Counted from the first letter of the stretch, positions 35,402 to 54,796 are shown. The stretch is 64,000 nucleotides of DNA from an uncultured bacterium (GCA_964534375.1 CAZHPN010000005.1:2676-66675), one strand, 5' to 3'. The notes: generated from the sequence alone by a model not told the origin. Numbers and translations: made by a program.

Positions 35402-35596
35402 ATGGCGAAAAACAACGTTGCCGAGACCGGCCCGGATCAGGTCTTCGTGATTCACCTGAAACGCGAACGCGCCTATTGGCGCGGCGGCCACAAATGGACG
35501 ACGGAAGCGCAGACCGTGAACGGCAAAGACTTCACGGCGGAGCAATGGGGACAAATCGCGAAAGACCCGTTGCTCGTCATCGTCGAGAAAAAGTAA
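35402..35596 (+). CDS. Small head-associated protein
   Basis: 64-aa ORF directly after the major head gene. Confidence 0.35.
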   Translation: MAKNNVAETGPDQVFVIHLKRERAYWRGGHKWTTEAQTVNGKDFTAEQWGQIAKDPLLVIVEKK

Positions 35597-35645
35597 CAAC
35601 GGAGGGCCGGGCGGCCCTGCGAAGGGTCGCCCGGCCGGAGACGCA

Positions 35646-37227: not shown

Positions 37228-37409
37228 CAGGAAAACTTTTCGTGCCGAAAACGGGCGTCGTGATTCCGCGCCACGGCGCCGCGCGTGGGGACGTGCCGGC
37301 CGCCGGCGAGCGCCTCACGGCGGAGAACGCCAACTATTACCGGCGCTGCGTCGCGCGCGGCGAGGGAACGATCGTCGATGCGCCGGCGGCGAAAGGGGGT
37401 CAATCATGA
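37224..37409 (+). CDS. DUF2635-like small protein (Mu gp38-like)
   Basis: 61 aa; VPKTGVVIPRHGAARGDVPAAGERLTAENANYYRRCVARGEGTIVD matches the DUF2635 pattern. Confidence 0.45.
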   Translation: MTGKLFVPKTGVVIPRHGAARGDVPAAGERLTAENANYYRRCVARGEGTIVDAPAAKGGQS

Positions 37410-39319: not shown

Positions 39320-39320
39320 C

Positions 39321-39767
39321 ATGACGACGCTCATTCTCGCGATTTTGTTCGGCCTGATGGCATACGCCGTCGGCATCACCGCGATCGAGGTGCCGCTCGC
39401 CGGCATCTACATCATGAAAATCGAAGGGTTCCCGGTGCTCGAACAGGTGAGCTTCAACATCGACGGCCACGACCAGGTGGTTGCCGAGGATCTGCTCATG
39501 GGCGTCGGGACATCGCTGACGTTCGGCGCGGGCTCGGGTTCGATCGAAACGAAAGAACCGCAAGCGCAATTGATCCCCTGGGAAAGCATGAACGGCCAAC
39601 CGCCGATGAACAACGTGGCGGCGTCCTTCGAGCCGATCGCCGGCATCGGCAGCTGCTTCGACTTGCAGAACTTCTACGTCATCAATTGTGCGACGTTCCG
39701 TCAGGACAAAAAGGCGGCGCTCAGTCGCCCCATCAAAATCGGCTGGGCCTCGCTCACGCCGCGGTAA
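39321..39767 (+). CDS. Tail tube protein (Mu gpM-like)
   Basis: 148 aa immediately after the sheath gene. Confidence 0.55.
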   Translation: MTTLILAILFGLMAYAVGITAIEVPLAGIYIMKIEGFPVLEQVSFNIDGHDQVVAEDLLMGVGTSLTFGAGSGSIETKEPQAQLIPWESMNGQPPMNNVAASFEPIAGIGSCFDLQNFYVINCATFRQDKKAALSRPIKIGWASLTPR

Positions 39768-39775
39768 CAACCAAC

Positions 39776-39842
39776 GGGATTCGGGGCTCGGGATTCGGCT
39801 GCGGCCTCCCGGACCCCGGACCCCGAAACCCGGAACCCGAGG
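39776..39842. repeat. Short tandem repeats (GGGATTC and CCCGRAM heptamers)
   Basis: gggattcggggctcgggattcgg ... ccggaccccggaccccgaaacccggaacccga; related to the host repeat at 8473..8504. Confidence 0.7.
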
Positions 39843-39850
39843 GGGAAATC

Positions 39851-40228
39851 ATGGCAACCATCAACGACGCGGACATCGTCCGCAAAATGCGCGAACTGAC
39901 CGAGCCGTTCACGCTCACCGGCGGCGTCCTGATCGCCGGCAACGTCTTTCGCACGGGCACGATGCGTATCCTCACCGGCCACATTCAGTCGGAAGTGACC
40001 GCCCAAAATCCCAAAAACGCCGACGAAGAAGCCGCGATGCTGATCGCCAAACGCATCACGCTCGACGGCCTCGATCCGAAAGCGCTCACGCACACCGCCA
40101 TTCTCGAGCTGCCGTCGTTCGATCGCGGCGAACTCGATATGGCCGCGGGGAGATTGTACGAAAAGTACAGCACCTTTCGTGACAAGCAACCTGCGACCGC
40201 GGCTGCAAACGGCGGGAAGACTGGCTAG
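39851..40228 (+). CDS. Tail assembly chaperone candidate (tape-measure chaperone position)
   Basis: 125 aa between tube and tape measure; a 120-nt gap before the TMP gene could accommodate a frameshifted extension. Confidence 0.45.
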   Translation: MATINDADIVRKMRELTEPFTLTGGVLIAGNVFRTGTMRILTGHIQSEVTAQNPKNADEEAAMLIAKRITLDGLDPKALTHTAILELPSFDRGELDMAAGRLYEKYSTFRDKQPATAAANGGKTG

Positions 40229-40348
40229 GCATTTCCGCATGTCGCTGGGCGAGGCGTTGTCCTTGCCCCGCGACATTGCGGTTTTGCTCTGGGATATCGC
40301 AAACGAAGAAGGCGAGGATCGGTGCCCGTTCATGGGCTGAGACGGTGA

Positions 40349-42535
40349 TTGACGATGGCGATGGATATCATGCGTGCGGCGCTAATGATCGACCTGGGCG
40401 GCAACGCCAGCGCCGGTCTTGCGCGCATGAACACCTACTTGGAGAAAACAGGCCTCATCACCGAAAAAAATCGTCCTGGCTGGCGCGGCATGACGTCGGA
40501 CATCAAGAATGCGACGGCCGCGTTGGGGGCATTTTATACCGCCGGGCGTATGATCGAGCGGATCGAGCCCGGCGCGGCCCGGCTGCAAACGTCGCTGCGA
40601 AATCTGAAAATCAATCTCTCGACCGAGCCGCTCGACGACCTAGACAAGACGATCAAAAAATACAGCCAGAACGCGTTCATGATCCAGGCAAAATTCGCCG
40701 TGGATATGACCGACGTGATGGAGGCGCAGAAGTATCTCAAGGGCCAACAGTGGGGCACGTCGGACATCCTCGGCGTGGGCGGCCACGCGGCGACCGCGTC
40801 GAAAATGGCGACGATCTTCAAGCGCGATTATGCCAATGCGGAAATGGCGGCCGTCGATGTTTCGCAGGCGATGCGCATGTTCGGGTTGACGGGCTCAAGT
40901 GCGCGCTTCGGCGACATTTTGACGCGCGCCTCGACGATGGGCGTGAACCCGGCCGACCTGATGCATCAAATGGAATACGTGGGGCCCTTGGCGAAGTCGG
41001 CGTTCGGCGCGCGCACGCAAGAGCAGCGCTGGAAGGCCCTGGAAGAGACCGTGTTCGGCATTTCGCTGGGCGTCTCCAGCGGCGCGAAGCCCGAGGCGAT
41101 CGGCCGTTACATGGGCGATTTCCTCGCGCGGATGGCCGGCGGCGCCGGCCGCGGGCATCACGGCACGGGCGGCCTGAATTTGTGGGAAACCACGGGCACG
41201 GGCAAGGACCGCACGAGGCACCTGAAGGATTGGATTCAGATCAGCGACGAGCTGAACAAAAAATTCGGCAACATGACCGACGCCCGCAAGCGCGAGGCGG
41301 AACTCGTAAAAATTTTCGGCGAGCAAGCCGCGCGCCTGGCCGTCGTTTTGATGGACCTCGGCGATCGCGCCAAGACGGCGCGCGAAAAATACCAAAAAGC
41401 GCCCGGCGCCGAAGAACGAATCGCCGGGCTCAAAGGGTCGTCCGAGTACGAGACCGCGATCGCCAAGAGCACGCTGAAAAGCATTTCCGACCTGGCCGGC
41501 CAGCGGCTGGCCGAACACAAGGGCCGGGCGTACGGCCTGCTCAATAGCGTGCTCGGCGTCGGCGGCGACGTGGCCGCCAACGAGAACGTGCAGGGCGGCC
41601 TCGCCTACGGCCTGGAAGGCGGCAAGTTTGTGGCGGGCGGCCTGGCGGCGTTCCTCGCAGCCCGCGGCCTCGTGCGCGGCGCAGGGGCATTAAAACAGGC
41701 CGGCGGCCTTTCCAAGATTCTCGGCCTCGGTTCGAGCGCCGTCACCGGCGACCTGGCCGGCACGGCGATGCAGCAAATCGACAAAAACCTGAGGAAGGTG
41801 TTCGTCGTCAATTGGCCGAACGGCGGCTGGGGCGGCGGCGCGATCGGCGGCGCGGGACTCGGGCGTTTGTCGGCAGCCGACGAGGCGATTCTATTCGGCA
41901 AAAAAGCCGAGGCGACCGCCGCCGGCGAGGCGGCCAAAGGGTTGACCACCTTCGGCGCCAACCTGACCAACACCAGCACGGCGCTCGGCGCGTTCGCGTC
42001 CGTCGCCGGCTCGGCCGGCCTGGTGCTGGCCGCGATCGCCGCAATCAAAGCCGGCGACGAGGCCAAGGCCGCTTATGACGATCTCGATTATCTCAACCGT
42101 CTGCCGCATCCGGGCGTCGGCGCGATCGCGAAGACCCGCGACGCCTCGATCGAGCGGGAAATCAAGAAACGCGGATTGAAGGGCAAGGCCGCGGAAAATT
42201 ACCGCCGCCAACGAATGGGCAAGCCGCTGCTCTCTGGCCCGAATGACCCGCTGGCGCACGGCTCGATCGCGCACAATATGTTTTTCCCGCCATCGGAAGA
42301 CTGGACCGATTTTACCGGCCAGAGCCACAGCGACACGGAATATATGTCGCTGCCCGCGGGCAAAAAACAGTATTCGCGCCCCGCCGGCCCTTACGATCAA
42401 GGGTCGGAAGAAGCGCCGATGCCCTGGGAAATTACCGTCAACGTGAAGGTGGACGACGACCGCACCAAGACGCAGGTCGATGGCGGCTCGCGCAAGCCGC
42501 GCAACGTCAAGCTTCGCACGCAGGGGGCCGAATAA
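40349..42535 (+). CDS. Tail tape measure protein
   Basis: 728 aa, Ala/Gly-rich helical protein with an internal hydrophobic Gly-rich segment; canonical position. Confidence 0.75.
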   Translation: MTMAMDIMRAALMIDLGGNASAGLARMNTYLEKTGLITEKNRPGWRGMTSDIKNATAALGAFYTAGRMIERIEPGAARLQTSLRNLKINLSTEPLDDLDKTIKKYSQNAFMIQAKFAVDMTDVMEAQKYLKGQQWGTSDILGVGGHAATASKMATIFKRDYANAEMAAVDVSQAMRMFGLTGSSARFGDILTRASTMGVNPADLMHQMEYVGPLAKSAFGARTQEQRWKALEETVFGISLGVSSGAKPEAIGRYMGDFLARMAGGAGRGHHGTGGLNLWETTGTGKDRTRHLKDWIQISDELNKKFGNMTDARKREAELVKIFGEQAARLAVVLMDLGDRAKTAREKYQKAPGAEERIAGLKGSSEYETAIAKSTLKSISDLAGQRLAEHKGRAYGLLNSVLGVGGDVAANENVQGGLAYGLEGGKFVAGGLAAFLAARGLVRGAGALKQAGGLSKILGLGSSAVTGDLAGTAMQQIDKNLRKVFVVNWPNGGWGGGAIGGAGLGRLSAADEAILFGKKAEATAAGEAAKGLTTFGANLTNTSTALGAFASVAGSAGLVLAAIAAIKAGDEAKAAYDDLDYLNRLPHPGVGAIAKTRDASIEREIKKRGLKGKAAENYRRQRMGKPLLSGPNDPLAHGSIAHNMFFPPSEDWTDFTGQSHSDTEYMSLPAGKKQYSRPAGPYDQGSEEAPMPWEITVNVKVDDDRTKTQVDGGSRKPRNVKLRTQGAE

Positions 42536-43806
42536 TGGCCGACCGCGACCCATTGCTCGTTCCCTGCACGTTAAACGGCATGCAACTGCCGCTTAAATCG
42601 TTCACGGATCACCACGCCCGCGCGCTGGCCGTGCACAGTTACAAAGACATTCCGGGCGGCGACGTGGACGACGCGGGCGCCGAGCCGCTCTGGGTGGATC
42701 TCGTTGTCGTGCTCGGCGGCATCGCGGCGCACCAAAACAAGCGCGCGCTCGGCGCGCTCATCGACAATACGCTGCCGCCGCTCGTGCTCACGCACCCGGT
42801 TTACGGGACGATGCCCGTGGCCGTGAAGACCGGCGATTCGGTTTGGACGGCCGGAACGCAGCGGCACGAATGGACGATCCACGTTGTCCGCGACACGCCG
42901 ACGCCAACCCTCGCGATGACGCCGCCGATCGCTTCGACGATCGTCAGCGCGCCGGCGATCGCCGCGGTGAACGCCGATTTCTCGCAACTCGCGGCCCTCC
43001 TCATGTGGCTGCTGGCGTTCGTCAACGCGCTGCGATCGCTGATATTGGGTTGGATCAATTTTCTCGGCCAATTGGGTTACGCCGCGCAATATCTCGAAGA
43101 CGTGGGCGCGTCGCAAATCGGCGAGTTCGGCTCGCTCGTGGCCGATGCAATGGCCGCGGATATGAGCGCCATGAAAAGCCTTTGCAATTACCCCGAAGAC
43201 CTCGCCGCGGCCTGCCAGCAGCAATGGAAGAATCTTTCGCTGGCCTACGCGAACGAATGGGGTTTTCCGGTGCAGACGTTGCGCGATTACGAATCGGGCG
43301 CGCGGGTCTACGATTCCTCGCCCTTCGCCAACGGCCGGCCGGCCGACGTGGAAAGCGCCGACGTGCAAACGCACGCGTTTCTGACCCTGATGGCCGGCGC
43401 GCGCGTCGGCTTCACGGCGGCGATGATCGAGACGGCCAGCGGCATGCTTTGCGACGCCGACCAGGCCGGCACGCTGACGGCCGCGCAGGCGACGATGACG
43501 GTCAACGCCTGCTACGGCGAGATTCAGAAGAGCCACCGCCTGGCGCGCACGATTCTGCCCGGCGGCCAGGCCGCGCAGGCGTGCCTGGATATGGCCGCGG
43601 GTTTGCGGCAACTGATGAACGGCCTGCGCATCCGCAGCGCTTATCGGCAAACCGTCGTGCTGAAAACCGCGCCGTTGTTTCTCATTCTTGCCGAGCACCG
43701 CATCGACCAGGGGCGGTTGGAAGAGATTCAACGCGCGAACGATCTGCCCGACACGCTTCGCGTGCCGGTCGGCGCGAAAATTTGGATTCCGGCGGAGGCG
43801 GCGTGA
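42535..43806 (+). CDS. DNA circulation protein (Mu gpN-like) with C-terminal LysM-like domain
   Basis: N-terminal ARALAVHSYKDIPGGDVDDAGAEPLWVDLVVVL matches the DNA_circ_N pattern (RLAVHEYP.RD...); C-terminal ...ILAEHRIDQGRLEEIQRANDLPDTLRVPVGAKIWIP is LysM-like. Confidence 0.6.
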   Translation: MADRDPLLVPCTLNGMQLPLKSFTDHHARALAVHSYKDIPGGDVDDAGAEPLWVDLVVVLGGIAAHQNKRALGALIDNTLPPLVLTHPVYGTMPVAVKTGDSVWTAGTQRHEWTIHVVRDTPTPTLAMTPPIASTIVSAPAIAAVNADFSQLAALLMWLLAFVNALRSLILGWINFLGQLGYAAQYLEDVGASQIGEFGSLVADAMAADMSAMKSLCNYPEDLAAACQQQWKNLSLAYANEWGFPVQTLRDYESGARVYDSSPFANGRPADVESADVQTHAFLTLMAGARVGFTAAMIETASGMLCDADQAGTLTAAQATMTVNACYGEIQKSHRLARTILPGGQAAQACLDMAAGLRQLMNGLRIRSAYRQTVVLKTAPLFLILAEHRIDQGRLEEIQRANDLPDTLRVPVGAKIWIPAEAA

Positions 43807-43865
43807 ACAGTGGTCAGTGGCCAGTGGTCAGTGGTCAGCATCCGGACTCCGCAGCGTCTCTGCGG
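43807..43865 (+). repeat. (CAGTGGT)x4.5 tandem heptamer repeat followed by a hairpin CCGCAG-CGTCT-CTGCGG
   Basis: Intergenic between the DNA-circulation and gpP-like genes; a related GAACAGY heptamer repeat is at 19407..19435. Confidence 0.7.
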
Positions 43866-43887
43866 CGCCTCCGTGTGAGCCTTTTAA

Positions 43888-44976
43888 ATGATCTTTAAGC
43901 ACACCGTCATCGTGTCGTTCGACACATTGCCCGTCGTACAGTGGGACGCGTTGGACGTGGATTTGACGTTCGACAAACTCTGCGGCTTTCACCTGCGCCT
44001 GCATCCGCGAACGATCGCCGAGGAATTGGCGCTCCGGGCCGCCTGGCGCGTCGTCGTGACGTTGAACGGCAAGCCGGTGCTGCGCGGGGTCGTCGATCAT
44101 CCGCATCTGGATGAAAAACGCGACCCCGACGAATATTCCATCGATGGGCGCGAGAGCGTTGCGGTCGCGGCCGATTGCGACATCATCAACGTTGCCGATT
44201 TGACCTCGTTGACGATGGGCGCGGCGATGCCGACGGTGCTCGGGCCGTTCAAGATCGGCTTCGTGCCCGGCCCGCGCGCCGCGGCCAAGGAAATTCTCGA
44301 ACCGCTGCTCGGCAAGCGGCCGTATCACGCCATTCAACATTTGGCCGACGAAGCCGGGCTGGCGACCTGGACCGATCCGGTCGCCGGCGTCATTTTCTGC
44401 GACGAATACGCCGCGTTGCTGGCCCAGGCGCGCAAGCTGCCGCCGATCCAGATTTTCCGCATTCCGGGCAATCCCGCGAACAACGTCGAACGGTTCACCT
44501 ATGACGATGAAAAGTGCCTCAAGATGAATACCTGCTCGATTATCGCGGACATGCAAATCCAGGCCACGATCGACAACGTCGCCGCCGCGCCGGCGGTTCC
44601 CGCGTTCGCCCAGGGCCTGCCGCTGCCGGCGCTCGCGCGAAAACCGGACGATCCGGAGCTCGCGGAATATCGGCCGCTGTTGATCCACGGCCGCGGCGCG
44701 AAATATAGCGACTTCGCCCAGCGGCCGATGGCGGAATTGAAAAAACGCCTGGCGCAAGCCACGCGGCTCGGCTACGAGCTCGCCGGTTGGTGCGACAAAA
44801 AAGGCGTCCCGTATTCGGATATCCGCATGGCCCAGGTTGCCGACGCCAGGCGCGAGATTTACGGCGAATTCTTTGTGGCGGCGGCGCGGCTCACGGCGAA
44901 GCGATCGAAGGACGACCCGAACGGCGGCTTCAATACACTTCTCAGTTTGATCGATCCAGGATGTTTGGCGGCATGA
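43888..44976 (+). CDS. Baseplate/tail protein (Mu gpP-like, P2 gpD-like family)
   Basis: 362 aa; positional and size-based call. Confidence 0.5.
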   Translation: MIFKHTVIVSFDTLPVVQWDALDVDLTFDKLCGFHLRLHPRTIAEELALRAAWRVVVTLNGKPVLRGVVDHPHLDEKRDPDEYSIDGRESVAVAADCDIINVADLTSLTMGAAMPTVLGPFKIGFVPGPRAAAKEILEPLLGKRPYHAIQHLADEAGLATWTDPVAGVIFCDEYAALLAQARKLPPIQIFRIPGNPANNVERFTYDDEKCLKMNTCSIIADMQIQATIDNVAAAPAVPAFAQGLPLPALARKPDDPELAEYRPLLIHGRGAKYSDFAQRPMAELKKRLAQATRLGYELAGWCDKKGVPYSDIRMAQVADARREIYGEFFVAAARLTAKRSKDDPNGGFNTLLSLIDPGCLAA

Positions 44977-45455
44977 CAATCGAACGCGATCGCGAAGAAC
45001 TCGCCGAATTGGGCCGCGCGACGGTCGCGGCCATGCTGCCGTCGCCGACCGGGCGCCTGGTGTTGCAACTGCTGCGCGGCGCGGCCGGGCCGCGGGCGAA
45101 CGTCGAACTGTGGGGCAACGGCTGCACGGATTTTCTGCCGACGAATCCGGCCGGCCTCGAAGTGCTGCTCTCGCAGTTATCGAGCGGGGCGCCGGCGGCG
45201 ATCGCCGTCGCCTGCGATATCGCGATCAAGCTCGCCGGGGTCGTGCTGCCCGGCCAGGCGCGCCTGTTCAACCCGTCGGACGGCAACCAGGTGCTGCTCG
45301 ACGTGGGCGGCATTATTCGCCTGGGCGGCCCGCTGGCGACGCATCCGGTCGTCTGCTCCGGCGACGTTATTACCGGACTGACCGCCGGTCCCTATGCCGT
45401 AACCGGATCGATTGTCGGCACGCCGGCGAGCGGCACGCGAAAGGTGATGGCATGA
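44973..45455 (+). CDS. Baseplate spike protein candidate (Mu gp45 / gpV-like)
   Basis: 160 aa; C-terminal ATHPVVCSGDVITGLTAGPYAVTGSIVG is beta-helix-like. Confidence 0.45.
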   Translation: MTIERDREELAELGRATVAAMLPSPTGRLVLQLLRGAAGPRANVELWGNGCTDFLPTNPAGLEVLLSQLSSGAPAAIAVACDIAIKLAGVVLPGQARLFNPSDGNQVLLDVGGIIRLGGPLATHPVVCSGDVITGLTAGPYAVTGSIVGTPASGTRKVMA

Positions 45456-45712
45456 AAAAGCGAGAAGCAAGAAGCCGGAAGCCGGAAGCCGGACTGCGCG
45501 CCTGGTTGCGCGGGCAGGCGGAAACGCGTTGCTTTATGGCCGGCCTGCGCGCGGTCGCGAAAAATCCGCGACGGCCGAATTACCGCTGGGCCCAGTTGTG
45601 GAAACGCCTGGCGATCGCGCTCGGCGCGAAATTCGCTGGGAGCGCCGACGCCCTCGTCGGCGACAGAAACGCCGGCGGGGGCGCCGGCGCTCCCGGCAAG
45701 GGGCGCCCGTGA
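45452..45712 (+). CDS. Small basic hypothetical protein
   Basis: 86-aa ORF from an internal ATG; Arg/Lys-rich, which makes it uncertain in high-GC DNA. Confidence 0.25.
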   Translation: MKKREARSRKPEAGLRAWLRGQAETRCFMAGLRAVAKNPRRPNYRWAQLWKRLAIALGAKFAGSADALVGDRNAGGGAGAPGKGRP

Positions 45713-46086
45713 GCCCGTTTCTCTGCCAGCCTGGCGTGGGCCTCGTCCTCGGACCCACAGGAAGGCCCGTCGCCGATCCAAGCGCGGCCACGGCCGTCTA
45801 CGTGCGCCTGGCGGCCATTTTTGACGGTTGGTGGTGGGACGCGACGAAACCGGCGGCGACCGAGGCCGAAATCGTCCGCGAAGTCTCGCCGGGCAGCGCG
45901 CCGCGCGTGGAAGCGCGCGCGACGATTCTTTTGCAGGCGCTGATCACCCAGGGCCTCATCAAAGACGTGACGGCGACCGCGACGCCAAATTACGCGAAGG
46001 CCGGATACGACCTGGTGATCAACTACACCGACCTCGTTTCGAACACGCCGGCGACGCTCAATGTCTTCGCCGCGATCGGGGATTGA
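45709..46086 (+). CDS. Baseplate protein (Mu gp46 / gpW-like)
   Basis: 125 aa from the GTG overlapping the upstream stop; positional call. Confidence 0.4.
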   Translation: MSPFLCQPGVGLVLGPTGRPVADPSAATAVYVRLAAIFDGWWWDATKPAATEAEIVREVSPGSAPRVEARATILLQALITQGLIKDVTATATPNYAKAGYDLVINYTDLVSNTPATLNVFAAIGD

Positions 46087-47443
46087 CGTGGACCCGACGA
46101 TCAAAACATACGCGCAAACGCAGGCCGAGTACCAGAACACCTTTGTCGCCACGATCCCCGAGGGCGACGCGGCCGACCCGAACGGGTTTTTTCACGGCCT
46201 GACGCATGCGCTCGCGCAGATCGACACGGGCATCGATGGCCGAATTCAACGCGCGATGATGAACGGCTTCCGCGGGACGGCCGATCCGGACGCGATGGCG
46301 AAAATTGCCGGGCCGGAAATCGGGCCGCCGCTGCCGGCGACGACGGCTTCGATGAACGTGCTCTTGCAGGGGACGCTCGGGGAACCGTTCGACGCGGGTG
46401 TCGAACTGCTCGAACCGAATTCCGGCGTCACAGTCAAAACGACAAGCGGCGGCGCATTTGTGCAGATGCAGGTCACGCAGTTCGTCGGCCTGCTGCCGAT
46501 CATGATGACGCTCAATGCCTGCGTCGTCTCTGCCGTTTCGGAAACGCCGGGCGCGGTCGGCATGCTGAAAAACGGCACGGCGCTGCAGGTGACCAGCAAT
46601 ACGCCGAACGTGCTTTCGAACGCCTCGGTATACGGCGGCGATGCGACCGGCGGCACGGACCAGGAAGACCCCGAGGCGTATCGGCAGCGCGACCTTGATT
46701 GGGTGCAGCACAAGCCGGCCGGCGGCAGAGACGGGGACCTGGCGATGCTGGCGAAATCGCTGCCCGGCATCGTCAAGGCCGTTGACTTCCCGGAACTCGA
46801 CGGTCTCGGCACCCATGCGGTCGCCGTTTGCGGCGCGAACAACGAGCCAGTTTCGGCCGATCAGCTCGCGGCCGTGAGTGCGGCCATCAATGGCCGCGAT
46901 TTTCGGATTGTGGGGATCAAAAATTATTACGCCCTCAATGCGACGCCGCGGTCGGTCGATTTTGCGCTCGCGGTCGAAACCGTCTGGTCGAATATCGGCA
47001 GCCCGAAACTGGTCGTCGCGGGCAGCACCCAAACGGTCGTCAACGTTTCCGACGCATCCGGGATTCGCTCCGGCATGAATATCGTCATCGCCGGCGCCGG
47101 CGTCGGCGGCGTTCCTTTCTGTGCGACCGTGTTGTCGGTCACCGGCAACGCGATCGCGCTCACGAACGCCAGCGCCTGCCCGATCGTGCCGGCGGCCGGC
47201 GCTGTTGTGACCGGGGGCTGCGCGGCGTTCAATACGCTTTATCAGCGCATTTTGCAGATGTTTTACGCGCTCGATCCGGGCGATGCGCTCTCGCCGTCAA
47301 TGTCGGTCGATCAATTCACGTTGGCGCAAATCACCGACGTAACAATTCTCGCGCCGGTCGCCACGGTGCGGCCGGTTGTCAGCGCGGATGTCGTGGAAAT
47401 TTGCACCCCGGGCGCAATCCTCATTGTGCCGATGGAGTCTTAA
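46061..47443 (+). CDS. Baseplate J-like protein (Mu gp47-like)
   Basis: 460 aa; canonical position. An alternative GTG start at 46088 would avoid the 26-nt overlap with the upstream gene. Confidence 0.55.
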   Translation: MSSPRSGIDVDPTIKTYAQTQAEYQNTFVATIPEGDAADPNGFFHGLTHALAQIDTGIDGRIQRAMMNGFRGTADPDAMAKIAGPEIGPPLPATTASMNVLLQGTLGEPFDAGVELLEPNSGVTVKTTSGGAFVQMQVTQFVGLLPIMMTLNACVVSAVSETPGAVGMLKNGTALQVTSNTPNVLSNASVYGGDATGGTDQEDPEAYRQRDLDWVQHKPAGGRDGDLAMLAKSLPGIVKAVDFPELDGLGTHAVAVCGANNEPVSADQLAAVSAAINGRDFRIVGIKNYYALNATPRSVDFALAVETVWSNIGSPKLVVAGSTQTVVNVSDASGIRSGMNIVIAGAGVGGVPFCATVLSVTGNAIALTNASACPIVPAAGAVVTGGCAAFNTLYQRILQMFYALDPGDALSPSMSVDQFTLAQITDVTILAPVATVRPVVSADVVEICTPGAILIVPMES

Positions 47444-47444
47444 T

Positions 47445-48713
47445 ATGGCCCCCACTACCGACGATGTCGTTCTCGATTTTTACCCGGTTGCGGGAATTCC
47501 GCTCGGTCGCCAGACGACGCTGACGGGCCTGCTGACCGCGGCGCAACAGCTTTATGGCCGCGGCGTCCTGCGCCTGCAGGCTGTGACCTTCGACCCGTCC
47601 ACAATTGCGGTTCCTGCGCCGGACGCGCTCTATCTCATTCACCCAGCGGCCTCGCAAAATCCCGGACATCTGGCGGCATTCACCAGTGCGGATTCGCAAT
47701 GGCATATTTCGACGTATCCGATCGGCGACGCCATTGTCACTCTCGCCGGTGACGACGGCGTGCACGAGCCGGGAATGCGTTATGCGCTGCTCGATGGCTT
47801 GTTCTGGCCGCTCGACCCGGGGATTCCCCGTCACGTCGTGGACATCGGCGCCATCCATCCGCCGGCCAGTCCAATTGTCGGCGGCCTTTATATCCTCGGT
47901 GATTCTGCCGCGCGCACGGGCGCCTGGGGCGGCACAGGTTCGATCAATCGCGCGCTCTGGAACGGAACGTCCTGGGTTTTTTACGGGGGCGACCTTGGCG
48001 ACTTAAACGGCGGATGTCTGCTTCGCGTGGACGCCGCCGACAACCCAACCGTCGCCGCCCCCGGATTGTATTGGTGGCGCGGAGGCGCTTTCGTTCCGCG
48101 GTTGATCAAATCTGATGCGCTGCCCGGCGATATCGATCTGACGATTCATAACATGATCCCGGACGTTTCAGGCGTCACCGCGCCGGGTCTCTGGGTCGTC
48201 GGGCCGGATGATGGGATTCCGACGCTCTATTTGGCCGTTCCCGGCGGCAATCCGATTCGCCTCGGTCAATTGTGCGGAATTCAAATCGCCGACGTGGCCG
48301 GGCTCTCGGACGCGCTGGCGGCGGCCGGCGGCCCGCAGCGCACCTATGCCCGCAACGTCAATCTGGTGCAGGCAAATAGCTTCGTCGATTTCGATGCGAC
48401 GATTACCGTGCCGGACGGCAAAAAGTGCATCTTCACGAATCTATATAGCTGGGTGCAGAGCGGCGGCACGGTCCAGTTTCTCAACGGTGACGCGCTTTAT
48501 ATCGTCAGCGCAGGTTTGACCGTTCTCGCCGGCCACACGCAGCCGACGCAATTGCAGCATATCTGGCAGACCATCATCCGCGCGCTGACCAACGTGGACG
48601 GCCCGATCGAGAGCGGCGTGACGCCGCGCATCGAGATCGATGGGGCGGACAGCGGGGCGGACGCCGCGGGCCTCGCGACCTTCATGCTCGAATATATTTT
48701 TGTGGATGCGTAA
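47445..48713 (+). CDS. Tail protein (baseplate wedge / fibre-proximal)
   Basis: 422 aa; start overlaps the upstream stop. Confidence 0.45.
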   Translation: MAPTTDDVVLDFYPVAGIPLGRQTTLTGLLTAAQQLYGRGVLRLQAVTFDPSTIAVPAPDALYLIHPAASQNPGHLAAFTSADSQWHISTYPIGDAIVTLAGDDGVHEPGMRYALLDGLFWPLDPGIPRHVVDIGAIHPPASPIVGGLYILGDSAARTGAWGGTGSINRALWNGTSWVFYGGDLGDLNGGCLLRVDAADNPTVAAPGLYWWRGGAFVPRLIKSDALPGDIDLTIHNMIPDVSGVTAPGLWVVGPDDGIPTLYLAVPGGNPIRLGQLCGIQIADVAGLSDALAAAGGPQRTYARNVNLVQANSFVDFDATITVPDGKKCIFTNLYSWVQSGGTVQFLNGDALYIVSAGLTVLAGHTQPTQLQHIWQTIIRALTNVDGPIESGVTPRIEIDGADSGADAAGLATFMLEYIFVDA

Positions 48714-49604
48714 ATGTCCCAATTCGGCGCACTCGGCTTTCCGTTCGACACCATCGGCTTCGCGCCGCCGGCCCCCGCTGCGCCGATCGGCGCGACGATG
48801 ACGCCGGATGTGACGAGCCTCCATGCCGCCGAGATACTCACGCTCACCGCGACCGCCGGTGTCTTTCCGATGAACCCGACGGCGACGATCGACGGAGTGG
48901 CGGCCGTCAAAATTGTGCGCGTCGATGACACGACGCTGGCGGTGACCACGGCGCAATTCATGCGCACGAACGAACGCGCCGACGTGATGATTTATGACGC
49001 CGGCGCGCCGATCGCGCAGGCGTCGATCGCCGTCCGGGACGAATTTTTGAAAATTCTGCTGGCCGCGACCGAGCGCGCCTGGTCGCCCGAGCCATCGTCG
49101 GTCGGCTACCGCGTACTCGCGGCGATCGCCGCGGGCCGCGAGCGCCGCAATGAATTGAATCGACGCTGCCACGACCAGATTTGCCCGGAGTCGGCCGACG
49201 CGATCGAGGGGCTGCCGGACTTCGAGCGGGACCTGGCGCTCGCCGCGCGCGAGGACCTCTCGGCGGCGCAACGCCGCGCGCGGGTGCGCGCCAAGCTCAA
49301 CGAATCGCCATCGCTGGCCTGGGGCGCGGTGCTCGATGCACTCGCGCCGTTTCTCGTCGGCTGCGCCGGCGCGGATTTGCCCGTCATTCACGAGCTCGAA
49401 AATTATGACGTTTATGGCGATTTGATCTGGTTTTTCTGGGTCGAAATCACCGATGCAATTATCAATGGCCCTGCGTGGGATTGGTCCTCGGCCGAGCAGG
49501 CGATTCGCGACGTGAAGCCCGGCTTCGCCGGTTTTTGCCTCGGCCGCCGCGGCTTTTTCGCCGGCATCAGCGGCGCCGGCCGCGACGCGGTCGCATACGT
49601 GTAA
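48714..49604 (+). CDS. Tail protein with DUF2313/YmfQ-like C-terminal region
   Basis: LPDFERDLALAAREDLSAAQRRARVRAKL resembles the DUF2313 pattern. Confidence 0.4.
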   Translation: MSQFGALGFPFDTIGFAPPAPAAPIGATMTPDVTSLHAAEILTLTATAGVFPMNPTATIDGVAAVKIVRVDDTTLAVTTAQFMRTNERADVMIYDAGAPIAQASIAVRDEFLKILLAATERAWSPEPSSVGYRVLAAIAAGRERRNELNRRCHDQICPESADAIEGLPDFERDLALAAREDLSAAQRRARVRAKLNESPSLAWGAVLDALAPFLVGCAGADLPVIHELENYDVYGDLIWFFWVEITDAIINGPAWDWSSAEQAIRDVKPGFAGFCLGRRGFFAGISGAGRDAVAYV

Positions 49605-49615
49605 GAGAGGAATAA

Positions 49616-50809
49616 ATGCAAAACGGCAAGCAATTCGAAACCCCCGACGGCGGCCCGATTTTTCCGTCCTATTTCAACTCGCTTTTTCGTCTATTCAAAA
49701 ACGGACTCCGGCCGGGCCTCTTCTGCGATGCGGCCTCATTGCTCGGCGCGCTGACCGCGACCGCGGCCACGCGCCTGACAATGACGGCGCCGAACGCGGC
49801 CGACGGCGAGTTCATTTATTCGGCCGGGATGTTCCTGACTGACGTCAACCAGGCCTTCGTCGATTTCGGCGTCGGCGACGCCGCCGGTCCCTATACCCTC
49901 TATATCGACGCCTCCGAAAACACGGCCGCGCCGTTTCCGCGCTTCGAAATCTTCCTGCGCAAGTTCCAGATCGGCGGGGGGGACGGCTCGGCGGCCAACA
50001 ATTGCCTCGCGATCGGCGTGGCGAATTGGGACGGAACGACGGCGACTATCGATCCGGTTCTCACCGCCGCGCTCCGCAAGGCCGCGCTCGGAATTCTCGA
50101 TCTGACGCGCCTTTATGCCAATCCGCAGGCCCTGCGCGATCTCGACAAAATGACCTGGGGCGACGGCGTCCGGCTCGGCGGCGAGCCCGCCGAAGACCCG
50201 ACGGCGAGTGTGAATCCCGAAGGCGTCAATGTGTTCCTCGGGCGCCTTTGCTCGCTCTTTTTCGGGCCGTCCGGCAACATCAAAATGGGGGCCGGCGGCC
50301 AGATTATCCTCAGCGACGGCAACGGCGGTTCGGTCCAAGTGGGTGATGCGCTGCTGCGCATCATCGCCGGCGCGTTGGCGCTCGACGGCTCCCCGCTGCA
50401 ACTCGACCAGACCTCGCCGATCGTCTTCGGAGCCTCCGACGCTCCGCAGCACCAAGGCGACAAGAATGTGCTGACCGTCGAGCACATCGCCAAGGTCGAT
50501 GCATATGCCCCATACGCCGCTTGGGGCGCGCCCGGCGGCGTGGCCGATATTAGCGGGATCGGAGTGGACTCGATCTTCAATTCGGCCGAAGGCGTTTATG
50601 TGGTCAATTTTCTGCATGCCTTTGCCGTTCCGCAAACCTATCGTTTGCACGTAGATTCCGATTATTGGGTGGCGCCGTGGTACTTCGTCGCCAGTCCGAA
50701 AGCCGCGGGCTCGGTGACTTTGGCGTTCTATTTTTGGGATAATACGACCAATGCTTACGTGCTGCGGAATACCTCGTTTTCAATTTACGCCAGCGGGGTG
50801 CTGGCCTAA
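49616..50809 (+). CDS. Putative tail fibre protein
   Basis: 397-aa Gly/Ala-rich protein; last structural gene. Confidence 0.45.
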   Translation: MQNGKQFETPDGGPIFPSYFNSLFRLFKNGLRPGLFCDAASLLGALTATAATRLTMTAPNAADGEFIYSAGMFLTDVNQAFVDFGVGDAAGPYTLYIDASENTAAPFPRFEIFLRKFQIGGGDGSAANNCLAIGVANWDGTTATIDPVLTAALRKAALGILDLTRLYANPQALRDLDKMTWGDGVRLGGEPAEDPTASVNPEGVNVFLGRLCSLFFGPSGNIKMGAGGQIILSDGNGGSVQVGDALLRIIAGALALDGSPLQLDQTSPIVFGASDAPQHQGDKNVLTVEHIAKVDAYAPYAAWGAPGGVADISGIGVDSIFNSAEGVYVVNFLHAFAVPQTYRLHVDSDYWVAPWYFVASPKAAGSVTLAFYFWDNTTNAYVLRNTSFSIYASGVLA

Positions 50810-50844
50810 TGCGATCCGAGAGGACCCTCGGCTCGAATGATCGG

Positions 50845-51333
50845 CTAGCCCGGAGTGCAGTCCGACGGCGGCCCGGCAATGCCTTCTTGCACCAACGCGA
50901 CAAAACAATTGCTCATAATCTGGCAACTGGAACCGGCGTAATAAATGCACTGTCCGAGCTGCTGCGTCACGCCATACGGAACTTGGTTGTTTTCGCAAGC
51001 CGAAACGAACTGGGCCTCGGTGCAGCCGACGATCCCGAGGCCGCATTTCGTGCAGAAAGCGTCGTAGAGGGATTGGCAGGTCGGTCCGCTGTCGTCGTCA
51101 TCGTCGTCGTTGTCGTCATTGTCATCATCATCGTCGTCGTCATCGGCCGCATCGTTATCGTCGTCGGCCGCATCGTCGTCGATCGTAGCGTCATCATCGG
51201 CGGTCGGCGAGCCGTCGTCGTCGGCGGCGACGTAAATGTTATTCGTGGTCTTGGCGCCGGGAGCGCACGTCGCCAGGAGCAAGAGGCAGCCGGCCAGGAG
51301 CAAGGACGCGATCGCGACAGTCAGGGCCTTCAT
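50845..51333 (-). CDS. Prophage-encoded secreted Cys-rich lipoprotein with poly-Asp linker (moron)
   Basis: Lipobox LLAGC, then a D-rich stretch ADDDGSPTADDDATIDDDAADDDNDAADDDDDDDDNDDNDDDDDD, then a C-terminal domain with 12 Cys. Convergent with the fibre gene. Confidence 0.5.
   Translation of the reverse strand: MKALTVAIASLLLAGCLLLLATCAPGAKTTNNIYVAADDDGSPTADDDATIDDDAADDDNDAADDDDDDDDNDDNDDDDDDSGPTCQSLYDAFCTKCGLGIVGCTEAQFVSACENNQVPYGVTQQLGQCIYYAGSSCQIMSNCFVALVQEGIAGPPSDCTPG
51091..51225 (-). repeat. GAC-rich trinucleotide repeat tract (poly-Asp)
   Basis: gtcgtcgtcatcgtcgtc... on the + strand. Confidence 0.85.
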
Positions 51334-51449
51334 CTCAATCTCCCATTTTCAAACGTGATGAGCGGATTCTCCCGCCGCAGGCAGAAGAATGTCAAGGGCG
51401 GTATTCACGGGCGTTCGCGCGAATTCGTGATTTTAAAAAGGAGTCCTAA

Positions 51450-51917
51450 ATGAGCGACCTCGGCCGAAAACTTCTCAATACCGCCAAATCCTACCTGGGC
51501 GTGCGCCGCGAACCGGGCACGTGCCCGCCCGCGATCGCCGAATTTCTCGCGGCCGTTGGCATGCCGCCGAACGAAACGCTGGCCTGGTGCAAAGCGTTTT
51601 TCACTTTCGTTTGCCAGCAGTGCGGCGTGGCCATCGACACGCACCCGAACGCCCGCGCGCTGCTCTCCGACCCGGACTGGCAACGCGTCGAGCCAGCCGA
51701 CGTGCAGGCCGGCGACGCGGCCGTTTTCTGGCGCGGCGACCCGAAGGGCTGGGAAGGCCACATTGCATTTGTCGCCGAGCCGCCTGGGAGCGCTGGCGTT
51801 CCCGCCGGCTTTTTGCGCGTCCTCGGCGGCAACCAGGCGTCATCCGTGTGCTATGAGAATTTCCCGGTCAACCGCGTGCTGGCCTATCTGCGGCCGAAGG
51901 AGCAAGCCGATGCCTAA
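51450..51917 (+). CDS. CHAP/NlpC-P60-like cysteine peptidase (TIGR02594-like; endolysin or PG hydrolase candidate)
   Basis: Catalytic Cys context LAWCKAFFTFVC and His context WEGHIAFV; 155 aa. Confidence 0.6.
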   Translation: MSDLGRKLLNTAKSYLGVRREPGTCPPAIAEFLAAVGMPPNETLAWCKAFFTFVCQQCGVAIDTHPNARALLSDPDWQRVEPADVQAGDAAVFWRGDPKGWEGHIAFVAEPPGSAGVPAGFLRVLGGNQASSVCYENFPVNRVLAYLRPKEQADA

Positions 51918-52179
51918 ACAACGCGAGTGCCATTGCCCCTGCTGCGGCTCCGCGGCCGTCCCAACCTATGCGGCCGGCCCGGCTGAGGGTTCGGTCCTTT
52001 GGGTTGAAGTTACAAGGTGCACCGATTGCGGCTTTGCCGTTCATTATCCGAAAAACGCCGCGACCTACGAGGCCGGCCTCTCGCGCACGTATTTCGCGAT
52101 GATCCGCGAGCTGCTCGAACTCTACGACAAGGCGCCCCCGGCGTGCGATCGCAACGTGCTGCCCGGACGGCAGGCGTGA
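51910..52179 (+). CDS. Zinc-ribbon protein
   Basis: 89 aa, CHCPCCGS ... CTDCGF; start overlaps the CHAP stop by 8 nt. Confidence 0.4.
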   Translation: MPKQRECHCPCCGSAAVPTYAAGPAEGSVLWVEVTRCTDCGFAVHYPKNAATYEAGLSRTYFAMIRELLELYDKAPPACDRNVLPGRQA

Positions 52180-52299
52180 ACGCTCTTTACGATCATCTTC
52201 ACGTCGAAGTGCACCCCGGAACGGGAGCGTAATATCACAACTTCCGCGCGCCAGTTTTCACCCAACGCCCCGACGCCGATCGAGCACGTCGCCGGCGTC

Positions 52300-53040
52300 A
52301 TGGTCAAACGCGATGATCTTTTCGAAGTCGCCGGCGTGTGCGGCGGTAAAGCACGGGCCTGTCTGGGTTTGGTGCGAAGAGCCCCAAAGCCGCGGCTCGG
52401 TCTCGTCACGGCCGGCGCGGCCGCATCGCCGCAGGTAAATATCGTGGCCCACATTGGCGCGGAATTGGGTCTGCCGGTGCGGGCGCACGTGCCGAAAACG
52501 AAGGTACTGTCGCCGGAAATTGCGGCGGCGAAGGCCCGCGGTGCGGAGATCATTCAGCACGCGCCTGGCTACAACACCGTGATCGTCGCGCGCTGCCGCG
52601 CCGACGCTCGCGCTCGGGGCTGGATCGAGATCCCATTCGGCATGGAGTGCCCCGAGGCCGTCATACAGACGTGGCAGCAGGCGGCGCTGCTGCCCTGGGG
52701 CCAATTCAAACGGATCGTCATGCCCTGCGGCTCGGGAATGAGCCTCGCCGGCGTCCTCTGGGCCCTGAAAGAATCGGGATGCAGAACGCCGGTGATTGCG
52801 GTGCGTGTCGGCGCGGACCCGAGCAAGCGGCTCGATGAGTACGCGCCGGATGAATGGCGGGCGATGGTTCAGATCGTCGATTCGGGAACGGGCTACAAAA
52901 TGGCCGCAGAAACGCAATGGAACGGAATCACCCTCGATCCGCACTATGAAGCAAAGGCGGCGAGGTTCGTGCAGCCGGACGATCTTTTTTGGATCGTCGG
53001 GCTGCGGCAGACGGTTAAGCGCTCTTTAACAACTGAATAA
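52300..53040 (+). CDS. Compact PLP-dependent fold-type-II enzyme, D-cysteine desulfhydrase / ACC deaminase-like
   Basis: VKRDDLFEVAGVCGGKARACLGLV...LGLVTAGAAASPQVNIVAHIGAELGL aligns with DcyD [22 protein letters not shown] ... [24 protein letters not shown], including the PLP lysine. 246 aa versus ~330 typical. The in-frame upstream peptide ...PTPIEHVAGV continues the homology but has no start codon. Confidence 0.6.
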   Translation: MVKRDDLFEVAGVCGGKARACLGLVRRAPKPRLGLVTAGAAASPQVNIVAHIGAELGLPVRAHVPKTKVLSPEIAAAKARGAEIIQHAPGYNTVIVARCRADARARGWIEIPFGMECPEAVIQTWQQAALLPWGQFKRIVMPCGSGMSLAGVLWALKESGCRTPVIAVRVGADPSKRLDEYAPDEWRAMVQIVDSGTGYKMAAETQWNGITLDPHYEAKAARFVQPDDLFWIVGLRQTVKRSLTTE

Positions 53041-53063
53041 TGACGGTTTTTTAGGTGTAAAAA

Positions 53064-53082
53064 CGCCCCGAAAAAAAGGGGC
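53064..53082. terminator. Hairpin CGCCCC-gaaaaaaa-GGGGC with flanking T/A runs (bidirectional terminator-like)
   Basis: 25 nt after the PLP-enzyme stop. Confidence 0.3.
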
Positions 53083-53196
53083 AGAGTTGGCATGTTAGCG
53101 CATGCCGAACCGACGACGCTTGCACGTCGCCCCGACGAAGCCGGCTGCCCCTAGCGAGAACACAGGCATTCTAGCCGGCGAAAAAGGGATGACAAG

Positions 53197-54099
53197 ATGC
53201 AGTCTTCATTGCGTGATTCGTTCATCGTGCCGCCGTTCAGCGTTCTGGATGCGCGGCAGGGTTATTGGCAGGAGCGGAAACGGCGCTGGCTCGAGCTGAT
53301 CGGCGAAATGCGGCCGACGTGCCCGCAGCCGCTGTTTCACGACGTTTCGATCGGCGGGAAAACCAAGAAGATCAAGGACGGCAAAAACCTCTCGATTTTC
53401 GACCCGGTTCTTGCCGAAGTGCTTTTGCATTGGTTCTGCCCCGTCGCCGGCGACGTGTTCGATCCGTTCGGCGGCGAGGCGGTCAAGGGCATCGTGGCGG
53501 CGACGTGCGGCCGGCAATATTTCGGCGTCGAAATTCGGCCGGCGCAGGTCTGGGAAAATCGGCGCATCGCCAAGCGTCTCGGCGCGACGCGTTGCACCTG
53601 GTTGATCGGAGACGCCGGCAAGCTCGCCGCGCTCGTGGCGGCGCAGCGGACCTTCGATTTTGTGTTTTCTTCACCGCCATATTGGAACCTCGAACGCTAC
53701 CGCGGGCCGCGCGGCGATCTCTCCGAGGCGCGCGATTACGGGTCATTCCTGGCCGCCTTTGAGCGCATCGTTTGCCTCTCGGCCGAGCGGCTGCGGCCCG
53801 GCCGGTTCATGGCGATCAAGGTCGGGAATTTCCGCGATCGCCGCGGGGCGCTGATCGATTTTGTGGGCGACACGGCGCGTTGCGGCGCGGCGGCCGGCCT
53901 GGCGTTCTACAACCAATACGTTCTCGCCGGCGTGAATGGCGCCGCGCCGCTGCGAGGACGCGGCATGATGCGCACGCGCAAATGCGCCCCGACCCATCAG
54001 GCGGTGCTGGTCTTTTTCAAGGGCAACCCGCGCGAGTTCGATCGGCGCGCGTTCCCGGAGATCAAGAGATACGATGATCCGCTTCCGGCTGCGGAATAA
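53197..54099 (+). CDS. DNA methyltransferase-like protein (motif I FDPFGGE, motif IV SSPPYW; N6-A / N4-C class)
   Basis: 300 aa. An AdoMet-binding FxGxG-type motif is followed ~85 aa later by an S-P-P-Y catalytic motif. Confidence 0.6.
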   Translation: MQSSLRDSFIVPPFSVLDARQGYWQERKRRWLELIGEMRPTCPQPLFHDVSIGGKTKKIKDGKNLSIFDPVLAEVLLHWFCPVAGDVFDPFGGEAVKGIVAATCGRQYFGVEIRPAQVWENRRIAKRLGATRCTWLIGDAGKLAALVAAQRTFDFVFSSPPYWNLERYRGPRGDLSEARDYGSFLAAFERIVCLSAERLRPGRFMAIKVGNFRDRRGALIDFVGDTARCGAAAGLAFYNQYVLAGVNGAAPLRGRGMMRTRKCAPTHQAVLVFFKGNPREFDRRAFPEIKRYDDPLPAAE

Positions 54100-54625
54100 G
54101 GCGCTGCGGGCGCGGGTCATCGCCGACCACCTGGCGAAACTCGGCCAGACGCGCTGCCTCGTATATTCGTGCGGCAATGCGGCGCGCGAATTGCGCCGCG
54201 TCGGCCTCGACGTTGTCGAGGTTGGCGCGGCCGGCGCCCTGATCGCCCAGCGGGAGCTTGATTGCGAGGAAATGCTCCTCACGCACCCCGGGCTTTTCAA
54301 CGCGACCAGCGGCCATTTGTCGCCGGCGTTGATGGCGCGCCTGGCGGACGTGTTCCGCCAGTGGCTGCCACCCAAAATTCTAGGTTCGAGCGAGCCGGTT
54401 TGGTGCCCTTGCGGCAGCGGCGAGACGCTGGTCGCCCTGGCGGCGAGCCTCGGTTTCCGCCGTCTGCGGGCGATCATTTCGGCCGATATTCCGGCCATCA
54501 ACTTCGGAATGACGCCGCTCGCCGGAGTCATCGCCGCGAACGTGCCGGTCTTCGACTGGCGCGATATTTCAGCGGACATCGATCGCCGGCGCGGCTGGCT
54601 GGTCGATACAGGATTCGCAGAGTGA
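54074..54625 (+). CDS. Hypothetical protein with PLP fold-type-II-like motifs
   Basis: LVYSCGNAARELRRVGLDVVEV (compare SsGNHg.A.aAa..G) and VWCPCGSGETLVALAASLGF (compare a glycine-rich loop); 183 aa; overlaps the MTase 3' end. Confidence 0.35.
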   Translation: MIRFRLRNKALRARVIADHLAKLGQTRCLVYSCGNAARELRRVGLDVVEVGAAGALIAQRELDCEEMLLTHPGLFNATSGHLSPALMARLADVFRQWLPPKILGSSEPVWCPCGSGETLVALAASLGFRRLRAIISADIPAINFGMTPLAGVIAANVPVFDWRDISADIDRRRGWLVDTGFAE

Positions 54626-54740
54626 AAAACGGTTGCTAAACGGCCATAAAACGCTGTTTAGAAAGCCGTGAAGAGTGAGTCAAAATTCTGACAGCGGCCG
54701 ATTCGTAGGAGAACCGGTCGCTATTTGTGCGCCTGGAGTG

Positions 54741-54796
54741 CGTTTTCTTTTTGCAAACCAAATGCACATTTTTTTCAAACCGCACGCGCGTCAACA
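54741..54796. repeat. Right end: terminal inverted repeat plus two subterminal repeats (putative transposase-binding sites)
   Basis: cgttttctttttgcaaacc and catttttttcaaaccgcacgcgcgtcaaca are reverse complements of the GGTTTGCAAAAA... sites at the left end. Confidence 0.65.

Follow-up and report, generated by a model that had tools for sequence, protein, structure and literature searches.

A Mu-like prophage carries at its right end a candidate DNA-modification module of a methyltransferase and proteins of the PLP-enzyme fold

A 64,000-nucleotide stretch of DNA from an uncultured bacterium (GCA_964534375.1, CAZHPN010000005.1:2676-66675; referred to below, at its full length of 64 kb, as the window) contains a Mu-like transposable prophage, at the right end of which we find three genes encoding MT300, an SPPY-subtype N6/N4 amino-methyltransferase (MTase) of the ParB-MTase family, PLP246, a stand-alone compact fold-type-II enzyme of the pyridoxal 5'-phosphate (PLP)-dependent class, and X183, a minimal fold-type-II PLP-like protein (Table 1). 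We consider it somewhat probable that PLP246, MT300 and X183 represent one phage DNA-modification module, placed where Mu carries mom. That the genes of the module are functionally coupled appears likely; that their product is a non-methyl hypermodification is quite possible, although we would not presume it. Predicted folds, cofactor motifs, gene fusion, gene adjacency and co-divergence argue that the MTase and a PLP-fold partner work together on DNA, and we infer that the proteins associate physically and bind PLP, as well as what the module targets on DNA and by which chemistry.

The pairing of X183 with the MTase is found well beyond this prophage. Searched as a single sequence, X183 retrieved two proteins and none in IMG/VR, and the family was recovered with a profile seeded with open reading frames (ORFs) located downstream of MTase homologues. 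This profile search yielded 919 proteins of ~160-180 aa, none of them with a Pfam domain, and in a library of 1.84 billion proteins the family falls into 239 clusters when grouped at 50% identity. In IMG/VR, the MTase gene lies immediately upstream of the X183-type gene and on the same strand in 74 of 80 loci and less than 1 kb away in four, the other two being interrupted by a contig edge. When the loci were dereplicated at 70% identity, which defines the lineages referred to throughout, 20 of the 23 X183 lineages had the MTase directly upstream, two had it within 1 kb and one stopped at a contig edge, which amounts to 22 of 22 informative lineages. X183 also directly follows the MTase in 10 of 10 bacterial genomes, belonging to the Acidobacteriota, Alphaproteobacteria, Kiritimatiellae and Firmicutes, and the pair is present in Clostridium phage phiCTP1 (gp51-gp52) as well as in L093 and L095. 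The junctions between the two genes overlap nearly always, and L008, the closest relative phage, has kept the pair with an identical 26-nt overlap. Moreover, X183 and the MTase core co-diverge, with a Mantel r of 0.95 (p 0.001) over 65 unique pairs at ~45% mean divergence.

The PLP246 family is connected to the same group of methylases, most frequently by fusion. A PLP246-type domain is inserted in the ORF of a ParB-MTase in 56 of 80 IMG/VR loci (30 of 46 lineages), the order being ParB domain, linker, motif I-II half, PALP domain and motif III-IV half, and the insertion point is constant at one profile position. Two of these fusions, L097 (769 aa) and gp70 of Pseudanabaena phage Pam4 (829 aa), were inspected individually. 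In other lineages of the family, ParB, MTase and PALP are encoded by consecutive separate genes, and in 8 of the 46, mostly from jumbo phages, the PLP246 relative has no MTase nearby. Partnership further follows the MTase subtype. IMG/VR contains 208 relatives of MT300, and starting from the MTase, a PLP246 homologue (hhalign probability 98.5%) or X183 was found directly downstream in about one quarter of 80 loci. The MTases paired with X183 combine the motif SPPY with DPF(G/A)GE, SPPY being present in 77 of 80 X183-paired relatives, and in sets chosen by the MTase alone X183 lies downstream of 9 of the 11 genes of the SPPY type; the combination of CPPY with DPFAGGS belongs to MTases that have a fused or adjacent PLP protein and to those without a partner. 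Across this ParB-MTase family (L010-L349), motif IV reads CPPY in the large majority and SPPY is confined to the X183-paired subtype, a cysteine being unusual in the (D/N/S)PP(Y/F) motif.

The module is usually located just upstream of the large terminase gene, in a setting described as the 'ParB-Tls' DNA-modification locus (PMC6536676, PMC4738411), instead of at a Mu right end as in the window. The initial annotation had weighed a linked module against three unrelated morons with a plain orphan methylase. Unrelated PLP genes would serve host or phage amino-acid or S-adenosylmethionine (SAM) metabolism, and their place beside the methylase would reflect only the tendency of phage ends and ParB-Tls loci to accumulate accessory genes. 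Such a history would suit the PLP246 relatives that lack an MTase, the missing PLP246 gene in L008 and the 156-nt gap with a hairpin that separates PLP246 from MT300, but chance co-location cannot account for domain insertion in 30 of 46 lineages, for X183 lying beside the MTase throughout (22 of 22 lineages, 10 of 10 genomes), for subtype-specific pairing and for an r of 0.95. Comparative genomics thus favours linkage, and we regard co-location of unrelated genes as very improbable, the idea being largely refuted for X183. Dispensability and lack of linkage of the PLP genes in related phages, which had been named beforehand as the outcome that would speak against a module, are seen in part for PLP246, through L008, and are not seen for X183.

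In a minority of lineages, further enzymes are encoded beside the MTase-X183 pair. Two X183 lineages (L186, at 1541-4332, L188, L196 and L197) have the MTase ~940 nt upstream, and between the ParB-MTase and the X183-type gene they carry a gene for a 323-aa PP-loop ATPase with an N-terminal motif like that of MnmA, QueC, TilS and LarE; all junctions in these loci overlap. In L095 (2883-5540) and L096, where the ParB-MTase-X183 pair is located just before the terminase and portal genes, the gene that adjoins the start of the pair encodes an SplB-like radical SAM protein (282 aa, PA0069/Rv2578c family). These neighbours hint at a wider chemistry; neither the PP-loop ATPase nor the SplB-like radical SAM gene is present in the window. 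On the side of the PLP246 family, a gene for an SNF2-family helicase lies directly upstream of a stand-alone PLP246-family gene in five lineages, near DNA polymerase genes. L098, a 168-kb contig, contains the SNF2-PLP246-type pair without a nearby MTase, and in L158 an MTase gene follows ~800 nt downstream. Staphylococcus phage Alsa_1 (L092, OR354820), a Twort-like phage, encodes a 242-aa PALP protein annotated as hypothetical (31849-32577), with a gene annotated as a DNA methyltransferase ~1 kb upstream of it, and the MTase-PALP association may thus extend to cultured Herelleviridae.

MT300 itself scores 29.6 bits against Pfam N6_N4_Mtase (PF01555), above the gathering score of 26.7, and its relatives phiCTP1 gp51 and Pam4 gp70 likewise pass the gathering threshold of this family. 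Matches to phrog_12517 (E 8.3e-79) and phrog_498 (E 2.2e-53) place it among the phage ParB-MTases, and its identity is 54% to the MTase of L008 and 40% to phiCTP1 gp51; a metagenome scan found no closer relatives (at most 45% identity), and PADLOC returned generic MTase matches only. Motif I (FDPFGGE) lies at about residue 88 and motif IV (SSPPYW) at about residue 158, and both align with the beta-class methylase TTHA0409 (2zie), which matches MT300 in two permuted stretches, the two halves of MT300 being circularly permuted relative to it. This agrees with the DNA MTase fold proposed initially. MT300 is without the ParB domain that most of its relatives carry. An SPPY motif IV is typical of enzymes acting on an exocyclic amino group, and judged from the sequence the target of MT300 would most likely be N4 of cytosine, with N6 of adenine as a possibility.

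PLP246 and X183 differ in how readily the fold can be recognised. PLP246 passes the gathering score of Pfam PALP (PF00291; 46.2 bits, gathering score 35) and matches phrog_3650 (E 7.8e-28), and its AlphaFold2 model (pLDDT, the predicted local distance difference test score, 96.8) has D-cysteine desulfhydrase (DcyD) and 1-aminocyclopropane-1-carboxylate (ACC) deaminase as its top Foldseek matches (E 6e-13, TM-score 0.79). The segment KRDDL...GGKAR aligns with IKRDD...GGNKLRK of D-cysteine desulfhydrase, so that K17 falls on Lys51 of DcyD, the PLP lysine. Across 120 relatives, G15, G16, R19 and G144 show no variation, while at least 90% keep K17, S145 and G146. The initial description of PLP246 as a DcyD/ACC-deaminase-like enzyme thus stands as regards fold, PALP similarity and the PLP lysine, but it does not extend to membership of TIGR01275, the ACC deaminase/D-cysteine desulfhydrase family, against which PLP246 scores 21.5 bits with a cut-off of 289.4. 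X183, in turn, belongs to no Pfam or PHROG family and has no significant sequence-family match; against Pfam PALP it reaches E 0.042 and 13.6 bits, under the gathering score of 35, and the X183 family profile has no sequence match in the PDB. The AlphaFold2 model of X183 (pLDDT 88.6) is matched in Foldseek by fold-type-II PLP enzymes, which make up the inspected top PDB matches (probability near 1.0, E 5e-4 to 3e-3), namely TrpB, serine dehydratase, CysK, threonine synthase, ACC deaminase and DcyD, and structure prediction in this way supports the original guess of a fold-type-II PLP-like protein.

The residues that the two families conserve bear directly on the main rival explanation. According to this rival, MT300 is a plain orphan methylase that makes N4-methylcytosine or N6-methyladenine, X183 and the PALP domains inserted elsewhere have retained a PLP-like fold but serve in structure, target recognition or regulation, without catalytic function, and PLP246 is a leftover. 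Motifs shared by partner-less and PLP-fused CPPY enzymes, and the fact that most CPPY MTases have no PALP domain, are compatible with this explanation, as are the much reduced size of X183 (~165 aa in comparison with at least 300), which sequence profiles do not detect as PALP, and the location of the PALP insertion in a variable loop of the MTase. However, the positions that are invariant in 120 diverse X183 family sequences (K9, R12, G34, T78, G80 and G114-S-G-E-T118, with N35 kept in at least 90%) are the residues expected for PLP binding, comprising an N-terminal lysine, an S-x-G-N element and a G-S-G-x-T phosphate loop, and the PLP246 family keeps the Schiff-base lysine in at least 90% of its members together with the glycine loop. 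In the AlphaFold2 model of X183, K9, S-x-G-N and G-S-G-E-T each lie at a strand-to-helix junction, and in the model of PLP246 the lysine, S43-P44-Q45 and G-S-G are predicted to occupy the same kind of position. Since conservation of PLP-binding residues in both families is not expected of a purely structural domain, plain methylation with non-catalytic partners appears rather unlikely to us.

Several observations weigh against a PLP-dependent module nonetheless. X183 resembles PALP by fold only, with a Foldseek E of ~5e-4 and TM-scores of 0.5-0.6, and the X183 protein of the window departs from its family at positions that are conserved in at least 90% of members (W61, D76, K123, Y135 and N150). 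In a profile-profile comparison (hhalign), X183 and the PLP246 family reached a probability of 3%, which is not significant, and we therefore claim no sequence homology between them. In PLP246, the Asn of DcyD that binds O3' is a Pro, the S-N-H loop having become S-P-Q. The conserved N-terminal strand of the PLP246 family is encoded upstream of the only canonical start of the gene, which may, on the evidence of the reading frame, be truncated. L008 has an unrelated gene in place of PLP246, which is hence dispensable for that lineage, and among ~250 loci no other combines PLP246-type and X183-type proteins. CPPY-type MTases had no PLP partner in 48 of 56 cases with room downstream, and in about three quarters of another set of loci, indicating that enzymes of this subtype do not require the PLP domain for their basic MTase activity. 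Finally, the loop that takes up the insertion, a helix-to-strand connection before motif III, would, if the class I fold is canonical, be found on the side opposite the SAM pocket, and substrate channelling is thus not obvious.

The start of PLP246 deserves separate mention. Positions 52240-52299 (PTPIEHVAGVMVKRDDLF; family consensus LTPVE..G..W.KRDDLF) show in-frame homology to the family over the 20 codons upstream of the ATG, and this segment contains no ATG, GTG or TTG in frame with PLP246. Either a non-canonical start could be used or, as the sequence would equally allow, the first strand is no longer translated. From 52240 onwards, PLP246 shares 63% identity with the domain that is inserted in the CPPY-type fusion L097; this identity and the homology upstream of the start suggest that PLP246 may be a recently acquired, possibly N-terminally trimmed copy. 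We also looked on either side of PLP246 for the remnants of a split MTase and found none.

How could the components of the proposed module cooperate? MT300 would provide the DNA-binding and SAM-binding catalytic subunit. X183 would act as a miniaturised PLP-binding subunit that works with the SPPY MTase subtype, its gene being translationally coupled to and co-evolving with that of the MTase, and PLP246 would be a second, larger PLP enzyme of a family that sister phages carry as an MTase-inserted domain. PLP enzymes act on alpha-amino acids, and the only alpha-amino-acid moiety in an MTase reaction is the methionine end of SAM or S-adenosylhomocysteine (SAH), or a transferred aminocarboxypropyl group, which favours a reaction that depends on both SAM and PLP. 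The PLP components may thus work on SAM, on SAH or on a base adduct derived from SAM, in each case at the alpha-amino-acid end, and the module would then either add more than a methyl group or methylate with greater efficiency. Our tentative proposal for the former case is a dual-cofactor enzyme that installs or matures an amino-acid-derived group, for example a SAM-derived aminocarboxypropyl or aminopropyl group, on the exocyclic amine of cytosine or adenine; alternatively, SAM or SAH could be processed in the active site. Cooperation of this kind has a chemical analogy in the microcin C enzymes MccD/MccE, where a SAM enzyme of the MTase fold transfers an aminocarboxypropyl group and a PLP enzyme then processes the tethered amino acid. 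The substrate there is a peptide-nucleotide and the PLP fold is another one, and we claim no homology. Whatever the group, the module would most likely modify the DNA of the phage itself and so let it escape host restriction.

In an alternative chemistry, the PLP proteins would act as donors, releasing sulfide or ammonia in the manner of a cysteine desulfhydrase or dehydratase for thiolation or amination of a base, while the MTase methylates or accompanies the reaction. PP-loop enzymes adenylate carbonyls for substitution by sulfur or nitrogen, and PLP sulfur donors are their classic partners; the PP-loop ATPase encoded between MTase and X183 in two lineages (L186, L188, L196 and L197) would therefore fit, as would the D-cysteine desulfhydrases that are the best structural matches of PLP246. 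However, most lineages and the window itself have no PP-loop gene, PLP246 scores far under the DcyD family cut-off, and donor supply leaves the insertion of a PALP domain into the MTase itself unexplained. We consider donor supply improbable.

Parts of the proposed SAM-plus-PLP module have counterparts in known systems. Phage ParB-fused N6/N4 MTases of ParB-Tls loci were predicted by Iyer et al. 2013, as reported in passages of PMC6536676 and PMC4738411, and the former describes their activity as unconfirmed. MT300 shares with these MTases (PHROG 498 and 12517) the family, the linker motif PPFSVLD..W..RK and motifs I and IV, but it differs from them in having no ParB domain and in its place at the end of a Mu-type prophage rather than beside a terminase gene. 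In the literature covered by our search, which did not extend to Iyer et al. 2013, no association between MTases and PALP proteins, either as PLP-fold partners or as insertions, is described. The MTase family and the ParB-Tls locus are thus already known as predictions, and the PLP-fold association appears, within the reach of that search, to be new. D-cysteine desulfhydrase and ACC deaminase (4d8t, 7ysl, 1tzk and 1f2d) align with PLP246 in KRDD..GG(N)K and in the glycine phosphate loop, but they are ~330-340 aa long as compared with 246 aa, and the PLP246 family occurs within DNA methylases or beside them. A precedent for PLP enzymes in post-replicative DNA hypermodification is provided by phages M6, ViI and PaMx11, in thymidine pathways that begin at 5-hydroxymethyl-2'-deoxyuridine and need a kinase and an aGPT-Pplase (PMC8989533, PMC11472151). 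Unlike in the window module, the PLP enzymes of those pathways are not coupled to an amino-MTase, and neither a kinase nor an aGPT-Pplase of that kind was seen in the window prophage.

The comparison with Mu itself concerns position and presumed role. The com/mom genes of Mu and the module share the right-end location as the last genes and a presumed anti-restriction modification of phage DNA, the product in Mu being N6-carbamoylmethyl-adenine. There is no relation in sequence or fold, as the Pfam and PHROG matches of PLP246, MT300 and X183 are to MTase and PALP families only; none of the proteins encoded in 51450-54625 showed homology to Mom or Com in Pfam and PHROG searches, which makes the likeness positional only. 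The cofactor logic differs as well, the module of the window combining SAM with PLP.

Placement of the module in the right arm of a Mu-like phage, already assumed in the initial annotation, is borne out by the prophage as a whole. It has a DDE transposase, a MuB-like ATPase, a repressor, TG...CA ends, terminal repeats and a 5-bp target duplication, as is characteristic of Mu-like phages, together with Mu-type tail and baseplate genes. Its ends are TGTTAACGCGC... (13131) and ...GCGCGTCAACA (54796), with 21 of 30 terminal bases matching in inverted orientation, and it is flanked by the direct duplication ACAGA at 13126-13130 and 54797-54801. In the 64-kb window there are just four copies of the sequence GGTTTG[AC]AAAA, two near each prophage end and in inverted orientation, and these copies are probably transposase-binding sites; at the right end they are GGTTTGAAAAA at 54781 and GGTTTGCAAAA at 54759, both on the minus strand. 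The right terminus reads ...TCAACA, with its last base at 54796, directly before the ACAGA duplication, and host DNA with a polysaccharide flippase gene follows beyond it. With the ends at these positions, X183 is the last gene before the right end, where Mu has mom. A right end at 54516, where two metagenome contigs stop, was considered and dropped, as the terminal repeats and ACAGA put the end at 54796. The two contigs, L002 and L003 (16 kb and 38 kb), come from other metagenomes and both break inside X183, 280 bp before the prophage end; their shared stop could be an assembly break or strain variation.

Table 1. Coordinates of the prophage, its right-end module and neighbouring features in the window
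Feature	Coordinates	Strand	Details
Mu-like transposable prophage	13131..54796		41,666 bp; module at its right end
HTH (helix-turn-helix)+S24 repressor	14154-15143	-	
Mu transposase	16076-18154		Mu-transpos_C E 2.3e-8, and rve
MuB-like AAA protein	18135-19145		AAA_22
CHAP/NlpC-P60-like (TIGR02594-like) putative peptidoglycan hydrolase	51450..51917	+	155 aa
Zinc-ribbon protein	51910..52179	+	89 aa; CPCC...CTDC cysteine pairs; zf-ChsH2 E 2.7e-3
PLP246	52300..53040	+	246 aa; stand-alone compact fold-type-II PLP enzyme, DcyD/ACC-deaminase-like fold
MT300	53197..54099	+	SPPY-subtype N6/N4 amino-methyltransferase, ParB-MTase family
X183	54074..54625	+	183 aa; minimal fold-type-II PLP-like protein; 26-nt overlap with the 3' end of MT300
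Prophage right end (attR)	54626..54796		two inverted copies of the putative transposase-binding motif

The block 51450-54625 is present unchanged in four metagenome assemblies, and all five of its annotated ORFs exist, each on the plus strand and with the coordinates first assigned to it. Two of them precede the module. The 155-aa protein was first described as a CHAP peptidase, and it does show similarity to Pfam CHAP (PF05257; E 1.4e-3, 19.6 bits), to TIGR02594 (E 3.7e-11, 43 bits) and to the tail lysozyme family phrog_1259 (E 1.6e-12), but it remains under the Pfam gathering score of 26 and under the TIGR02594 cut-off, so that the peptidase assignment is a weak one. The 89-aa protein has two CxxC pairs and zf-ChsH2 similarity, in line with the zinc ribbon that had been proposed, and its ORF is called as a gene in the four metagenome copies. 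No relative of either protein was found in 82 MTase loci, and no linkage of these two genes to the module was detected. Upstream of the block, a 162-aa ORF on the minus strand (50845-51333) runs antisense to its neighbours, the tail fibre genes on one side and the accessory block on the other; it combines a signal of the lipoprotein type (LLAGC) with a long low-complexity region rich in Asp, and L008 has a 166-aa minus-strand ORF at the equivalent position. The hairpin in the gap between PLP246 and MT300 (53064-53083, minus strand) is GC-rich, is followed by a T-run and is terminator-like in appearance. It scored no better than shuffled expectation, and a promoter and terminator scan was uninformative.

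Whether restriction and other defences succeed is decided by the DNA modifications of phages, which have also been a source of useful enzymes. Our analysis ties two PLP-fold families, one of which (X183) lies outside Pfam and PHROGs, to one phage methylase family, and for the long-ignored ParB-methylases it leads to the prediction that PLP is a second cofactor. If this is true, dual-cofactor modification with SAM and PLP would constitute an undescribed class of phage DNA hypermodification that is widespread in ParB-terminase loci and that fills the niche of mom in the prophage described here. Should the product be methyl, X183 would represent a new kind of methyltransferase subunit; should it not be methyl, the module would stand for new nucleic-acid chemistry and a new anti-restriction strategy.

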